A stretch of 40,000 bases of DNA from an uncultured Clostridia bacterium (GTDB taxonomy: Bacteria; Bacillota; Clostridia; TANB77; CAG-508): contig CANQAB010000002.1 in assembly GCA_947589445.1 (NCBI GenBank), forward strand, positions 1 through 40,000. Reading direction: 5' to 3'. This document shows, piece by piece, positions 25,147-34,820 of this stretch; the first letter of the stretch is position 1; every line of letters starts with the position of its first letter. The notes below the pieces were generated by a model. The model saw only the letters and a list, made by a program, of their open reading frames with translations. It did no database searches and had not been told where the DNA came from. Position numbers and translations under genes: made by a program.

Positions 25147-26220
25147 TTATGCTGCCTTCCCCACAGCATAATGTACGTTAAAATTTTCATCAAAAAAATT
25201 TTTATAATTATTGATACACTTTAAATTAAAATTATATCCTAATGGAATTAGATCACTAAATACCCTTCTTGTAATATAATCAATATTTTCGTTAGAATAA
25301 GGTACTCTATACACAAATGTTATGTTTTTAATATCTGTTTTTTCAATTTCTTTTAGCATCACATAAGAATTTGTAATGTTTTGAAATGCTATCATTGGTT
25401 CATTTCTTGTTGCTTTAATAAGAGTTCCTAAAATAAAATTATCTGTAATAATCAAATCTGTAGTTTTCTCATTAATATTATTTTTCATAATATAGCTTCT
25501 AGCTGCAGTACCATTAATTTTATCCTTGCTTGAAAACCATATATCTAAATTATTATTAAATGTTTTATCTAAATGAATTGATAATCCTTGTATATACCCA
25601 TTTTCATCAAACACAGGAACAAAAAAGCCATTACTTCTAGCAAAAGTCCATTTAAAATCTGGTTCTTGGTAAAATCCTGGTATTCCTGCCAGGTTATACT
25701 CTCTTGATAACGCTTTACATATTAGCCTTCTTTTTATTTCTTTTTTAGGAACACTTCTATATAATCCATTATTTATTGTACTATTTAACATTCCAGTATT
25801 TCTTAGATAACTTCTATGTGTTCTTTCTAGTCCTATCATATTCAAAAATGCTCTATATACTTTATCTCTTATTTCAATATCTGCCAATAAATTTATTGGG
25901 CTGATTTGAATTTTTGATCTATCTAGTGAAAAACATTCTCTTTCTAGTAATTTCTTATATGCCTTTTTAGAGTCTATTCCTTTAACCTTTGCATATAATC
26001 CTACTGAATAACCACCCTTACCACATCGTGAACAACAATATTTATTATTATTAATATTAAGACTTAAGGTAGGAATTTTAGTATTTTTATTGTAACCACA
26101 AAAAGGGCATATTGCCTTTGCTTCTTGTCCTTTTGTTTCTACTATTTCTAAACATAAATGAAATGCTACATTTAAAATATTAATGTGTTTTTGTACTTCA
26201 ATATAATCTAAATTTTGCAT
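25147..26220 (-). CDS. CHC2 zinc-finger primase-like protein; ends in -KAA
   Basis: The N-terminus CPFCGYNKNTKIPTLSLN...YCCSRCGKGGYSVGLY fits a CHC2-type primase zinc finger. The C-terminal alpha/beta domain is possibly Toprim-like. Confidence 0.5.
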   Translation of the reverse strand: MQNLDYIEVQKHINILNVAFHLCLEIVETKGQEAKAICPFCGYNKNTKIPTLSLNINNNKYCCSRCGKGGYSVGLYAKVKGIDSKKAYKKLLERECFSLDRSKIQISPINLLADIEIRDKVYRAFLNMIGLERTHRSYLRNTGMLNSTINNGLYRSVPKKEIKRRLICKALSREYNLAGIPGFYQEPDFKWTFARSNGFFVPVFDENGYIQGLSIHLDKTFNNNLDIWFSSKDKINGTAARSYIMKNNINEKTTDLIITDNFILGTLIKATRNEPMIAFQNITNSYVMLKEIEKTDIKNITFVYRVPYSNENIDYITRRVFSDLIPLGYNFNLKCINNYKNFFDENFNVHYAVGKAA

Positions 26221-26234
26221 CTTTTATTTCCTTT

Positions 26235-27095
26235 CTATGCTGCAAGTTCCATTCGAGGTAACTCACATTTTTCTATTTTCTCTATGAATTGATTAGCACA
26301 TTTTTGAATTTTATTTCCTAATTTGATTACAATTTTAGGATCACCTTTTGCCCATTGTGTAATATAATTAAAACTACAAATTGATGTATCTAGCCCAAAA
26401 TAGTCTGCTACACAAAAAGCAATAGATTCAACAAATACTTCTGATAAATTTCTATCCTTTTTATAATCAAAATCGTCATATAAGGAATGTGCCATTTCGT
26501 GTAATAATACAGATGTCTTTTCATTAATACTTAATCCCTTCTTTAGTGCAATCTTCTTACCTACTGGGCTATAATAACCCTTTATAGAGCCATACATTGT
26601 TTCTTCAACTATTGGAACTTGGCTAATATTTTCTAGCTTTTTATATAATTCCAACATATTATCACCATTAATTGGTTTTGTTTCTAATGGAATATCTTCT
26701 CCAGTAGTTTGTGAAATATCATATACATATACCCATCTATACCAGTTATAGTTATAGCTCTCTTCAGTTTCAACTTCTTCGCCATCTACTATTTTTTTAA
26801 CTTTCTTTGTATATTTTTGTGGTATAGGAGCTAATATATAAATCGGTTTTGCACCTTGAATGACCTCTCTTTTCATTTTTTTAGTCCATTTAGACTTCCC
26901 AGCAACTTGTGTCGCCTCAGGAAATTGTGAAAAAATTAAAACGAGGTTACCAAAACTGTAACCCCTAAAATTTTTTCTAAACTTCAAAAACTTTTTATAT
27001 TCTCCTCTATCTACTATCGTTTGAACGTTATTAACAATTTTGTCGTAAATTTCCTGCATTTTATTTTTTTTACTATTTGTTTTATTCCCTTTCAT
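26235..27095 (-). CDS. ardC: ArdC-like protein (ssDNA-binding N-domain plus HExxH metalloprotease); ends in -LAA
   Basis: Likely start is ATG 27095 after AAGGAGG. It has YSFGNLVLIFSQFPEATQVAGKSKWTK...GAKPIYILAP (ArdC-N-like) and the zinc-protease motif LLHEMAHSLYDD. Confidence 0.55.
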   Translation of the reverse strand: MKGNKTNSKKNKMQEIYDKIVNNVQTIVDRGEYKKFLKFRKNFRGYSFGNLVLIFSQFPEATQVAGKSKWTKKMKREVIQGAKPIYILAPIPQKYTKKVKKIVDGEEVETEESYNYNWYRWVYVYDISQTTGEDIPLETKPINGDNMLELYKKLENISQVPIVEETMYGSIKGYYSPVGKKIALKKGLSINEKTSVLLHEMAHSLYDDFDYKKDRNLSEVFVESIAFCVADYFGLDTSICSFNYITQWAKGDPKIVIKLGNKIQKCANQFIEKIEKCELPRMELAA

Positions 27096-27114
27096 TTTTA
27101 ACCTCCTTAAAATT

Positions 27115-33297: not shown

Positions 33298-33341
33298 GTC
33301 TATAATAATTTTGTTTATGTAGCAGTTTTTTCATTTTTTTC

Positions 33342-34442
33342 TTATGCTGCTACATTTTTTTTGTGTTTTTCAATAAATTTAATATCTGTGGTAAAGGTTT
33401 TATCTCCAGCTTTTGAAAGATTTAATTCTACTACTGTTCCAAGTTCACATTCTTCAAGTTCTTTTTTGAAACCTGGTGGAACTATTACATCAACTGGCTC
33501 ATCATTATTATTTACAAAGTTTCCAACGGTATATTCTGTAGGTTTTCCATCTTTTAAAATGTTGGTTTTGCTAGTTCCAATTAAAACATAATAATTTTCG
33601 AACTCGTCCATATTTGATGCTGATTTTTCCTCTATTTTATTTGTATTTTCTTTATTATCTTTTGAACTTTCATTTGATAACTTTGTATTAACTTTAGTTT
33701 CTTTTTTACCTTTTGTTGTATCGGTGCTTTGCTTTTTGATATCTTCTTTTATTACTTTTATTTTCTCTTTAGGTTTAACTACTTTTTCCTTATTTTCTGT
33801 TGGTACAGTTATTTGATTTGTTTGGGGAATTTCTTGAGAAATAATTCCTTCGTTTTTATAAATATCAAGAACATAATTGTTAAATGTTTTTCCAACTCTA
33901 TTTAATTGCTCTTCCTGATTAAGTGTTAATACATAATCTCCAATAATAGATTTCCCTTGTATTTTTTGTAAAGTAATATAATCTGAAATTCTATCGATTG
34001 AAGTTTGTCCAGTGATTTTCATTATGAAAATTCTATCTGTTGAAACGCCTGGAATTAAAAATTTTAAAGTTCCTTCTCTATTACACGCTGGCCTACTTGT
34101 TCCATTAAAGGCTCTATACTGGCAATCTTCTTTGCATTCTATTGATTTCCAACCATTTTTTGTTTTTTCTTTTGCTTGAATGCTCTCTTCTAGACAATAA
34201 CAAACGTTTCCGCCTTGATTATATCTAGCAAACCTTATAGAAAAAGGATTCTCGTCAAAAAATCTTATATTAATTTTTTTCTGTTGTGGGTATTTTTCAT
34301 TAAATTTATTAAGTAAAAACTGCATATTACTATTTTTACTCTTGACTATAAAATAACCCAACTCTTTTACTCTCTTTCCTTCTTGTTTTTCTCCATGCTG
34401 AAGCTTCCCAGCAATTGGATAGTTTTTTCTTACTTTTTCCAT
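33342..34442 (-). CDS. Cys-rich (C..C...C...C) protein with a K/E/T-rich linker, function unknown; ends in -VAA
   Basis: 366-aa ORF. The N-domain carries NVCYCLEE...CKEDCQY...ACNREG. The middle is low-complexity, and the C-terminal domain is small. Confidence 0.55.
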   Translation of the reverse strand: MEKVRKNYPIAGKLQHGEKQEGKRVKELGYFIVKSKNSNMQFLLNKFNEKYPQQKKINIRFFDENPFSIRFARYNQGGNVCYCLEESIQAKEKTKNGWKSIECKEDCQYRAFNGTSRPACNREGTLKFLIPGVSTDRIFIMKITGQTSIDRISDYITLQKIQGKSIIGDYVLTLNQEEQLNRVGKTFNNYVLDIYKNEGIISQEIPQTNQITVPTENKEKVVKPKEKIKVIKEDIKKQSTDTTKGKKETKVNTKLSNESSKDNKENTNKIEEKSASNMDEFENYYVLIGTSKTNILKDGKPTEYTVGNFVNNNDEPVDVIVPPGFKKELEECELGTVVELNLSKAGDKTFTTDIKFIEKHKKNVAA

Positions 34443-34457
34443 TTTTTCCTTCCTTTC

Positions 34458-34820
34458 TTATGCAGCAACCAATTCTTGCATACGATAACTATTTGCCTTA
34501 ATTTTTGCCTGATCTATTGTGTAAATTGGATATAACATATTTTTATATGCGAAAATACCAACTTGCTTTTTAATAATTCCTAACTCTATAAGCTGTGGTA
34601 TTAATGTAGGTTTAAAACGACAATTTACAATAATTTCATTATTAGCAAGTATTCTTTTATTCTGATTCAAAGTAATATCTGCTAAATGTGCAATTTGATT
34701 TACATTGGTATCATATCCAAATAAACTCAGTTGTAGGTTTCCATTTTTGTACCTTGAACTATGTATAAAACAACCTTCAAATAAAGTTTCATACATTTCA
34801 AAACTAAAACCATTTCCCAT
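34458..34820 (-). CDS. DUF4313-like small protein, first gene of the ssb operon; ends in -VAA
   Basis: RBS GGAAGGAG precedes the ATG. It shares a pattern with ORF 30273-30635. Confidence 0.4.
   Translation of the reverse strand: MGNGFSFEMYETLFEGCFIHSSRYKNGNLQLSLFGYDTNVNQIAHLADITLNQNKRILANNEIIVNCRFKPTLIPQLIELGIIKKQVGIFAYKNMLYPIYTIDQAKIKANSYRMQELVAA

Follow-up and report, generated by a model that had tools for sequence, protein, structure and literature searches.

Conserved Ala-Ala and Val-Ala C-termini as putative ssrA-like degrons on eight proteins of a mobile-element operon from gut Clostridia

Eight of 14 consecutive minus-strand ORFs in the operon that runs from 34820 to 25147 of the window (the whole stretch analysed, 40,000 nucleotides of contig CANQAB010000002.1 from an uncultured Clostridia bacterium) encode proteins ending in Ala-Ala or Val-Ala, against 0 of the ~32 other ORFs. 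The ends are conserved at the protein level in relatives. We lean, with modest confidence, towards reading them as a natively encoded ssrA-like degron (ClpX C-motif-1 class) on eight DNA-processing or establishment proteins. As far as their sequences indicate, these proteins probably have short lifetimes built in by the element, because bacterial proteins destined for degradation by ClpXP are normally marked by Ala-Ala or Val-Ala ends. The eight tailed genes are the following.

34458..34820, minus strand: first gene in the operon, encoding 120 aa that belong to no known family, ending MQELVAA (tail codons 34461-34466, stop 34458-34460)
33342..34442, minus strand: Gp3-like (PF18897) protein, 366 aa, ending KKNVAA
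31429..33047, minus strand: Rad50/SbcC-like ATPase (AAA_23; phrog_77), ending SLLQAA
30960..31376, minus strand: DUF3846 protein, 138 aa, ending IFGIAA
29470..29745, minus strand: 91-aa protein, phrog_3489 (function unknown), ending TLTKVA
27115..28653, minus strand: PcfJ-domain protein, 512 aa, ending LKQLVA
26235..27095, minus strand: ArdC-N/metalloprotease-like protein, 286 aa, ending RMELAA
25147..26220, minus strand: the operon's last gene, 357 aa, primase-like with a zinc ribbon of the DnaG type, ending AVGKAA

The eight stop positions and C-termini had been listed in an earlier note on this DNA, and all proved correct when the ORFs were re-read; its remark that no other protein of the window has an [A/V]-A end was also borne out. 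Three starts call for comment. The Rad50-like gene most likely begins with ATG 33047, preceded by an AGGAGG ribosome-binding site, and not with TTG 33117, to which its longest ORF extends. The most likely start of the PcfJ gene is 28653 (Met at ORF codon 6, in agreement with a 512-aa database entry), and that of the ArdC-like gene is 27095. At the DNA level all eight ends read GCW GCW TAR or GTW GCT TAR. The GC content of the window is ~26%, and Ala accounts for 3.8% of the residues of this element family. An [A/V/I]-A end is expected in ~0.7% of proteins from composition and is observed in 2.4% of unrelated genes; set against these two background rates, 8 of 14 gives a binomial p of 2e-14 and 3e-10, respectively.

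The untailed genes of the operon are interspersed among the tailed ones.

33029-33334, minus strand: small ORF
30655-30939, minus strand: S6 paralogue
30273-30635, minus strand: 120-aa ORF
29824-30285, minus strand: SSB, ending DDLPF
29073-29465, minus strand: 130-aa ORF, ending KMVV
28646-29080, minus strand: PcfK-like protein, ending SLFGGEFNE

The gene content is typical of establishment, with matches in Pfam and PHROGs to SSB, to ArdC-N/metalloprotease/anti-restriction families and to the DnaG zinc ribbon, and a tyrosine recombinase gene lies next to the operon, close to one of the element's ends. The earlier note took the operon for a leading region whose proteins are made early after DNA entry; this gene content and the structured leader described below hint that it may be one, but neither a relaxase nor an oriT was found in the window. 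Four signals flank the coding region.

35175..35147, minus strand: promoter-like site TTGAAA-17-TATAAT, 5' of the leader (region 34821..35209)
within 34821..35209, minus strand: conserved structured leader of ~325-330 nt preceding the operon (z = -8.1)
34976..34897, minus strand: terminator-like hairpin and T-run inside the leader
25104..25137, minus strand: hairpin AGTCTATC...GATAGACT resembling an intrinsic terminator, with seven T's after it, directly 3' of the last tailed gene

In the leader GTGTATAAAGA and TCTTTTTACAC, both invariant, pair with each other, the latter lying directly 5' of the ribosome-binding site. Between the two lie four covarying hairpins, and 13 pairs of the leader carry compensatory changes on both sides. 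The leader was found in 31 loci, one copy in each and in every case 5' of the operon, and it has no Rfam match.

Conservation of the tails was assessed in 36 syntenic loci from gut Clostridia, which supply 257 proteins in the eight tailed orthogroups. An [A/V/I]-A-COOH end is present in 232 of these 257 (63-100% per orthogroup), compared with 15 of 627 other proteins. Among syntenic orthologues it is found in all 27 first-gene proteins, 28/30 Gp3-like, 32/32 Rad50-like, 31/32 DUF3846, 30/35 91-aa, 34/36 PcfJ and 31/35 ArdC-like proteins; the primase-like family has it in 19/30, and some of the others end in SA or AS. Database homologues extend the pattern: 119 of 120 relatives of the first-gene protein end in AA, VA or IA, the motif occurs in 117 of 120 DUF3846 proteins, and among 120 PcfJ homologues of 41-100% identity 112 end in VA or AA and 117 in A. 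PcfJ operons with a different gene content also hold several tailed genes (four of ~15 in L052, some in L051 and L050). Lack of enrichment among homologues was the outcome that the earlier note had named as counting against its idea; since the pattern is kept in relatives, where enrichment is strong, that outcome was not observed. The untailed families behave differently. The S6, SSB (0/35) and small-ORF orthogroups have no member with the motif in the syntenic loci, while the PcfK-like orthogroup has it in 8/36 (SLFGGVA) and the 130-aa family in 2/32. The motif is present in only 14 of 106 distant PcfJ representatives, and the PcfJ homologues of four phages and one enterococcal plasmid lack the tail. 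By this comparison the tails are lineage-specific additions, and the tail is dispensable for fold or catalysis, given the tailless PcfJ proteins of phages and enterococci and of most distant representatives.

Over the 257 proteins, position -1 is Ala in 92% and position -2 is Ala, Val or Ile in 94%. Position -3 is Ile, Leu, Val or Met in ~51%, Lys in 21% and Asn in 10%, with Lys, Asn, Gln, Glu or Gly accounting for about half; Lys occupies position -4 in 41%. PcfJ tails, for example, read KKLVA, KQLVA or NKMVA. Residues upstream of the terminal dipeptide are family-specific, and only the last two are common across families; on this pattern, whatever reads the tail sees the extreme C-terminus alone. 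In the relatives the terminal Ala codons (GCA, GCT, GCC and GCG) are used in shares close to those of internal Ala codons, and at position -2 GCN (Ala), GTN (Val) and ATH (Ile) codons alternate. Since the terminal codons vary as internal ones do, the codon data place selection on the tail at the protein level.

AlphaFold2 models were available for two of the eight tailed families. The 120-aa first-gene protein, which has no fold match in the PDB, is modelled with a mean pLDDT of 88, and its last 6 residues fall below 50, so that its QELVAA end is conserved yet of low pLDDT. The DUF3846 tail terminates a long helix that projects from the model (residues 96-137); the mean pLDDT over its last 8 residues is 63. 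The models thus predict exposed tails, through disorder in the first-gene protein and through position on a protruding helix in DUF3846.

How such tails might act is suggested by studies of ClpXP. The terminal Ala-Ala-COO- is the most important element of the ssrA tag and touches the pore loops of ClpX (PMC7652416). In an unbiased E. coli screen of random C-terminal 5-mers, the sole strong and consistently enriched degrons were ClpXP-dependent and ssrA-like: FKLVA ranked first, 91% of the top 100 contained Ala-Ala, and the tags that became enriched had a neutral or slightly positive character (PMC10862746). In the same work short polar side chains, Gly, Pro or His at -3 weakened the tag, and 39% of Ala-Ala tags were weak (PMC10862746). 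All eight window proteins have the terminal dipeptide that defines C-motif 1 (Ala-Ala, or Val-Ala as one of the variants tolerated, with a free alpha-carboxylate). A favourable context further comprises 5 or more upstream residues, with Leu or some other hydrophobic side chain at -3. By the E. coli rules PcfJ (K-L-V-A), DUF3846 (I-A-A) and the first-gene protein (L-V-A-A) have a good -3 context, and the Rad50-like (K-A-A) and 91-aa (E-A-A) proteins a poor one. Recognition of the E. coli type would be weakened because -3 is often K, N, Q or E. Firmicutes possess ClpXP, and their ssrA tags end in LAA. The earlier note had proposed the tails as ClpX-type determinants, a proposal strengthened by the match to terminal Ala-Ala-COO- and LVA, by protein-level conservation across hundreds of homologues and by the predicted exposure. 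Its parallel with the Ala tails of RqcH concerns tails attached after translation, whereas those here are gene-encoded. The Ala and Val codons precede ordinary stops in intact, conserved ORFs, and a tmRNA tag or RqcH Ala-tail added after translation is ruled out by their position within those ORFs. A scan of the window and of 35 loci, with 10 kb either side of each, detected no tmRNA gene.

The proposed mechanism is as follows. The operon would serve an integrative conjugative element of gut Clostridia as a DNA-processing or establishment module, producing Gp3-like, Rad50/SbcC-like ATPase, DUF3846, S6 paralogue, SSB, PcfK, PcfJ, ArdC-like and primase-like proteins. On eight of the products the exposed x-[A/V]-A-COOH tail would act as an ssrA-like degron of the ClpX C-motif 1 class. 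A host AAA+ protease, most likely ClpXP, would take the terminal dipeptide and its free carboxylate into the axial pore, and the bound protein would then be unfolded and degraded. The tailed proteins would be intrinsically short-lived, with an abundance that follows transcription of the operon, and all eight would decay together once transcription ends because one protease is common to all. We infer ClpXP as the reader, the instability itself, and its purpose, which would be to confine the activity of the proteins to a short phase, for instance excision, transfer or establishment. Against a degron stands the cost of making eight proteins unstable.

A conjugation-specific role, such as recruitment to a type IV secretion system (T4SS), would fit equally well with the lack of the tail in phage homologues. 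We consider it unlikely that the coupling protein of the element reads K-x-[A/V]-A-COOH and exports the proteins to the recipient along with the DNA, in the way that primases, SSB, PsiB and ParB of Gram-negative plasmids are transferred. Known T4SS signals may be C-terminal and rich in positive or hydrophobic residues (PMC11288057), and the tails have a C-terminal position, a Lys enrichment at -4 (41%) and -3 (21%), a hydrophobic end and, in the models, exposure. The tail occurs in conjugative-element lineages and not in the four phage PcfJ homologues, the window encodes a T4SS with a VirD4-type coupling protein, and cargo of the primase-like and ArdC-like classes would be expected to function in recipient cells. 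The primases Sog and TraC are transferred plasmid proteins. Plasmid proteins with demonstrated transfer include SSB, PsiB and ParB (PMC8406263). However, no known signal requires a fixed ultimate residue, the known ones being loose patterns of charge and hydrophobicity (PMC11288057). SSB, which is transferred in F-like plasmids, is tailless here and keeps DDLPF, none of its 35 orthologues being tailed; coiled-coil ATPases of 540-660 aa are unlikely cargo; and the tails are intact even though two ORFs share what should be one coupling-protein gene in the window. In its boldest form this reading would make K-x-[A/V]-A-COOH the first sequence-defined export signal of a Gram-positive conjugative T4SS, with eight establishment proteins co-transferred, or else a dual-use signal for export from the donor and ClpXP clearance in the recipient; we give this form slightly less credence still.

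It is a shade more doubtful again that the tail is a docking peptide for a non-protease partner (a hub or chaperone of the element, or a host protein) that assembles the eight proteins into a complex. The tail is a conserved yet disordered short linear motif, and the C-terminal tip of SSB, which recruits partners, offers a parallel. Other C-termini of the same operon have docking-type motifs, namely DDLPF of SSB and Q-L-S-L-F-G-G of the PcfK-like protein, which resembles a clamp-binding motif. Searches with Pfam, NCBIfam and PHROGs, however, identified no domain that reads C-terminal peptides (PDZ, TPR) among the window proteins, and a two-residue motif holds very little information for a specific hub. 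In the bacterial cytosol, AAA+ unfoldases are the sole well-established readers of Ala-Ala-COO- (PMC7652416).

A signal at the nucleotide or translational level (a recombination linker joining gene cassettes, a termination/re-initiation context, a restriction or RNase site) or a compositional accident is very improbable. G[CT]W GCW TAR is present at all eight window ends, the next gene's ribosome-binding site lies closely 3' of most tailed genes, and TGA stops follow the motif in 5/257 cases compared with 56/254 untailed operon genes. That TGA excess, however, comes mostly from two families with stops at or near the start of the next gene, and ATGA-type overlaps occur in the window (29073) and in L007 and L008. 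Such a signal is essentially refuted by the codons of relatives, which vary (GCC, GCG, GTG, GTC, ATA, ATT) in shares like those of internal codons, by post-stop sequences that differ between junctions, with TAA-GAAAGGAAGG junctions also at untailed genes, and by the tailed last gene, whose 3' neighbour is a terminator and not a coupled gene; the binomial p values exclude the accident.

Conjugative elements must turn on DNA-processing, anti-restriction and recombination proteins briefly. To our knowledge, the ways described for achieving such transient expression are all transcriptional (ssDNA promoters, repressor lag, EGeRS1). If the tails are degrons, the proteins of a whole operon would have a built-in expiry date enforced by a host quality-control protease. 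Horizontal gene transfer in gut Clostridia would then be regulated at a new level, and the operon would be a natural case of several proteins coupled via a single shared protease. The tails would also be ready-made degradation tags for clostridial synthetic biology. Should they instead be export signals, they would define cargo recognition for a Gram-positive T4SS, which is currently unknown.

The tails here and the C-motif-1 class, which comprises ssrA (AANDENYALAA) and its LVA and AAV variants, have in common an Ala-Ala or Val-Ala end, a free carboxylate, accessibility and, in many cases, a hydrophobic -3 residue. RseA(1-108), which ends in VAA, is a ClpX C-motif-1 degron. LVA and FKLVA are proven ClpXP tags (PMC10862746; PMC7652416). 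The ssrA tag, however, is added by tmRNA during translation for quality control, whereas the tails here are gene-encoded, selected and placed on functional proteins; the upstream context also differs, being YAL in ssrA and often K, N, Q or E here. Hard-wired tails also limit cell-cycle ClpXP substrates of Caulobacter, such as CtrA, which ends in Ala-Ala, to a time window. Those substrates require adaptor hierarchies and are chromosomal regulators, whereas the tails here are on products of a mobile-element operon. The Streptomyces regulator Sigma-AntA has a C-terminal Ala-Ala in 67/71 orthologues, is degraded by ClpXP, and is stable as an Asp-Asp variant (PMC7142297). Its gene-encoded, conserved Ala-Ala end was predicted from sequence before ClpXP dependence was shown, and its logic, proteolysis instead of a dedicated regulator, is the one proposed here. 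Sigma-AntA is, however, a single regulator of an actinomycete biosynthetic cluster, whereas eight unrelated families of one mobile-element operon carry the tail here. The earlier note had called apparently undescribed the logic by which proteins made early after DNA entry would be built for rapid proteolysis, and we found no earlier description in the literature searched.

T4SS substrate signals resemble the tails in being C-terminal, exposed and positive or hydrophobic, but the known ones are degenerate over 20-50 residues and have no fixed terminal dipeptide. With respect to its leader, the operon resembles the establishment genes of pLS20, upstream of which comparable regulatory sequences lie. 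In EGeRS1 of that plasmid a multi-hairpin region is located immediately 5' of the ribosome-binding site (PMC8708921), as in the leader here; the likeness is one of architecture, and the GC content is opposite, the sequence here being AT-rich and that of pLS20 GC-rich. Leading-region systems (the ssDNA promoters of F and ColIb, the Reg576 repressor of p576 and EGeRS1 of pLS20) control ardC, ssb and primase-type genes, as found here, and their stated need for rapid but transient activity is shared with the degron reading. In those systems transience is transcriptional and the proteins are lost by dilution, whereas the present operon is proposed to have an additional, post-translational means of clearance.

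Eight of the 14 ORFs in the operon, which run consecutively on the minus strand (34820→25147), encode proteins that end in -AA or -VA, and ORF listing and translation reproduced every one of the termini reported in the earlier note.

Operon genes, all on the minus strand, with the C-terminal residues of the tailed proteins. The annotation is from Pfam, PHROGs and NCBIfam.
Gene 1, stop 34458: 120-aa protein of no known family, QELVAA
Gene 2, stop 33342: Gp3-like protein (PF18897), KKNVAA
Gene 3: small ORF
Gene 4, stop 31429: Rad50/SbcC-like ATPase, SLLQAA
Gene 5, stop 30960: DUF3846 protein, IFGIAA
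Gene 6, 30655-30939: ribosomal-protein-S6 paralogue
Gene 7: 120-aa ORF between the S6 paralogue and SSB
Gene 8: SSB
Gene 9, stop 29470: 91-aa protein, LTKVA
Gene 10: 130-aa protein
Gene 11, 28646-29080: PcfK-like protein
Gene 12, stop 27115: PcfJ, KQLVA
Gene 13, stop 26235: ArdC-N/metalloprotease-like protein, RMELAA
Gene 14, stop 25147: primase-like protein with a DnaG zinc ribbon, VGKAA

The window's other ORFs, about 32 in number, all lack an [AV]A end, as the note had claimed, and the scarcity of alanine to which it drew attention extends to the element family, where alanine makes up 3.8% of residues. Ends of the form [AVI]A are expected at about 0.7% from composition and occur at an empirical rate of 2.4% in unrelated genes. 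Eight tails among 14 ORFs then have a binomial probability of 2e-14 (composition rate) or 3e-10 (empirical rate), and this value, together with the conservation of the pattern, rules out chance or composition. An alternative genetic code or read-through is also rejected, since in this AT-rich window (about 26% GC) table 11 gives long, regular ORFs, and all three stop codons are in use.

Conservation was assessed in 36 syntenic loci, from which ORFs were called, orthogroups built and ends scored as [AVI]A. The tail is present in every member of the first-gene (27/27) and Rad50-like (32/32) orthogroups, and in 31/32 DUF3846, 34/36 PcfJ, 28/30 Gp3-like, 31/35 ArdC-like and 30/35 91-aa proteins; in the primase-like orthogroup it is found in 19/30, with several others ending in SA or AS. 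Pooled, 232/257 members of the eight orthogroups are tailed vs 15/627 of the other proteins (>=80 aa) of the loci. This survey of homologous termini, which the earlier note had proposed as a possible refutation, thus found enrichment. Ten of the 15 tailed outsiders belong to the same operon, being PcfK-like (eight, ending ..SLFGGVA) or of the 130-aa family; the other five mostly resemble accessory genes of this operon. Across the 36 loci no tail occurs on SSB, the S6 paralogue, the sigma factors, the Spo0A-like regulators or other orthogroups outside the operon; none is found on the type IV secretion (T4SS) genes of the window. Independent database searches gave the tail in 119 of the 120 first-gene homologues listed and 117 of the 120 DUF3846 homologues listed. 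PcfJ has 157 close homologues; in the 120 listed, at 41-100% identity, the last residue is A in 117 and the last two are VA or AA in 112.

The tail has little in common between families beyond its last two residues, which are the sole part shared by all eight. Position -1 is A in 92%, and position -2 is A (65%), V (26%) or I (3%); position -3 varies (K, I, L, V, N or M) and position -4 is K in 41%. Upstream contexts are family-specific (ELVAA, KKVAA, PKAA, FKNAA, KEAA, KKMAA/KLVA, QLAA, KKVA). The AlphaFold2 model of the first-gene protein has a pLDDT of 88, with values below 50 for the last six residues, QELVAA; conservation combined with predicted disorder is the hallmark of a short linear motif. 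In the DUF3846 model the tail lies at the tip of a long projecting helix, and the models thus place the tail in an exposed position. Comparison of homologues indicates that the tail is an add-on dispensable for the fold, because it is missing from PcfJ homologues of phages phiCD211, Bastille, SAC12B and phiCs5676-1, from that of an enterococcal pheromone plasmid, and from most distant full-length PcfJ proteins (of 106 found by profile search among 1.8 billion representatives, 14 end in [AVI]A and 20 in A). On a C. sporogenes plasmid the ends are limited to -IA and -SA. Several tailed genes recur in distant PcfJ operons with other gene content and 41-44% GC: four of about 15 genes in one locus (L052) and some in two others (L050, L051).

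The sequences indicate that selection acts on the peptide, because the tail codons vary like internal ones, the junctions share no sequence and the last gene of the operon is tailed though no coupled gene lies downstream. The last tail codon is GCA in 165 cases, GCT in 59, GCC in 7 and GCG in 1 (internal Ala codons: GCA 55%, GCT 35%, GCC 6%, GCG 4%), and the penultimate codon is distributed over GCN, GTN and ATH. The junctions in the window have no common sequence 3' of the stops, and untailed operon genes show identical TAA-GAAAGGAAGG junctions. A nucleotide motif, a GCWGC restriction site or a cassette-boundary linker is inconsistent with this codon variation, with -VA ends that lack GCWGC and with the unshared 3' sequences, and nucleotide-level explanations are essentially refuted. 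Coupling of termination to re-initiation fails on the last gene, which is followed by a hairpin resembling an intrinsic terminator. TGA stops are found in 5/257 tailed vs 56/254 untailed operon genes (36 loci), an excess that comes mostly from two untailed families with stops at or near the start of the next gene; TGA avoidance is thus no proof that an exact C-terminus is required, and is kept as a weak clue.

Two other features of the operon can be recorded here. The S6 paralogue, two genes upstream of ssb in the window and directly adjacent to it in several relatives, recalls the rpsF-ssb order of chromosomes; in several relatives there are two S6-like genes (about 215 aa and about 94 aa; L002 6631-7293 and 7311-7595). 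The operon of the closest metagenomic relatives has an insertion directly behind ssb, an IS110-family transposase gene in the opposite orientation (L054 14731-15972; L055 7747-8988). PcfK-like proteins end in ..Q-[LM]-S-L-F-G-G plus 0-4 residues, and the one in L052 (9462-9980) terminates exactly at QLQLSLF; such ends look like the beta-clamp-binding motif QL[SD]LF.

The element is an integrative conjugative element of Clostridia, because of its secretion and recombinase content, the presence of relatives in large contigs and the position of an integrase gene beside a tRNA-Arg gene in two loci. The remainder of the window encodes a Gram-positive T4SS (pilin-like proteins, a VirB4/TraG-type ATPase and a VirD4 coupling protein) and a tyrosine recombinase. 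The contigs that carry relatives come from uncultured gut Clostridia and reach 1.75 Mb, and an integrase gene (499 aa) adjoins tRNA-Arg(ACG) at the locus edge in L008 (19629-21230) and L014 (about 21157-21233), which is probably where those elements integrate. Megablast gave no close DNA relatives among plasmids and phages, and no relaxase or oriT was recognised in the window. The VirB4-type ATPase and VirD4 genes are each represented by two overlapping ORFs (2100-2837 and 2806-4416; 16045-17385 and 17357-17803) that meet in A-rich sequence, which could reflect a frameshift, sequencing error, decay or a genuine two-gene organisation. The transfer region also contains (7763-13715, plus strand) a gene for a sortase and two surface proteins with SpaA/thioester domains, one ending ..LPRTGK, which are likely mating adhesins. 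The element also encodes three sigma-70/ECF-like factors, zf-HC2 anti-sigma-like proteins and two Spo0A-like response regulators (17958-19554, 24454-24996, 37912-39364, 21922-22689 and 37197-37922), a regulatory set that is unusually rich for a conjugative element. At 19684-20959 (plus strand) a protein with an S1 domain like that of ribosomal protein S1, its last residues ..YLMRIF, forms a pair with a DUF5697 protein; relatives and C. sporogenes pNPD7 have this pair too.

On balance, the tails are probably natively encoded ClpXP-type degrons; host ClpXP would read the terminal Ala-Ala or Val-Ala and degrade the eight operon proteins. This reading is favoured because ClpX is the established cytosolic reader of Ala-Ala-COO- (PMC7652416), because the PcfJ tails resemble the best tag of a degron screen and because there is a direct precedent. 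Native proteins are targeted by related Ala-Ala degrons, and likewise by Ala tails in Bacillus (PMC7652416). When random C-terminal 5-mers were screened in E. coli, the strong, consistently enriched degrons were all ClpXP-dependent and ssrA-like, and 91% of the 100 best contained Ala-Ala; tags that worked well were neutral or weakly positive, and Ala-Ala alone was insufficient (PMC10862746). The best tag, FKLVA (PMC10862746), is very near the PcfJ tails KKLVA, KQLVA and NKMVA. The precedent for inferring a degron from a conserved Ala-Ala end is Sigma-AntA, in which Ala-Ala was found in 67/71 orthologues, ClpXP degradation was then shown and an Asp-Asp variant was stable (PMC7142297). Against a degron, residue -3 is polar or charged in several families. 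No tmRNA gene, which would specify the host tag, was found in the window or the related loci scanned.

The main rival, a signal that recruits the proteins to the T4SS, is unlikely. T4SS signals that lie at the C-terminus and are positively charged or hydrophobic are known (PMC11288057), conjugative-element lineages carry the tail while the phage homologues examined lack it, and proteins of these classes are plausible cargo; no known T4SS signal, however, fixes the ultimate residue, and SSB has no tail. The tail could also dock the proteins to a hub that is not a protease, a reading that is a little more doubtful still; no domain that reads C-terminal peptides was found in the window proteins.

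The operon may be a leading region expressed early after DNA entry, as the earlier note proposed, and a notable feature lies upstream of its first gene.

Upstream features, both on the minus strand.
35175..35147: sigma-70-like promoter, upstream of the leader
34821-35209: structured leader of about 330 nt, also in L002 (2140-2507), L004 (2066-2438) and 28 other loci

The leader has a folding energy of -86 kcal/mol (z = -8.1 vs shuffled sequence) and is 64-74% identical across 27 relatives. It forms four hairpins, in which 13 pairs have changed on both sides with pairing kept, and these hairpins are enclosed, immediately ahead of the ribosome-binding site, by an invariant long-range helix of GTGTATAAAGA with TCTTTTTACAC. 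The leader also has a terminator-like hairpin. Each element has one copy, with no extra copies elsewhere in the window or loci, and Rfam gave no match for operon or leader. The leader could be a new cis-regulatory RNA, an attenuator or an ssDNA element. Its architecture is similar to that of EGeRS1, a conserved stretch of about 325 nt with several hairpins that directly precedes the RBSs of pLS20 establishment operons (PMC8708921), and by analogy this likeness would support reading the operon as an establishment regulon.

The tail observation is robust, and the degron interpretation is plausible from the sequences. Native Ala-Ala degrons are already known; CtrA and RseA fragments are other examples. 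Transient expression of establishment genes is known too, but at the transcription level only. The earlier note had called the logic apparently undescribed, and the literature searched indeed held no description of operon-wide, multi-family, evolutionarily maintained ssrA-like tails on mobile-element proteins. What would be new here is the operon-wide set of encoded tails across eight families, Ala-Ala degrons themselves being known singly, as in Sigma-AntA (PMC7142297).
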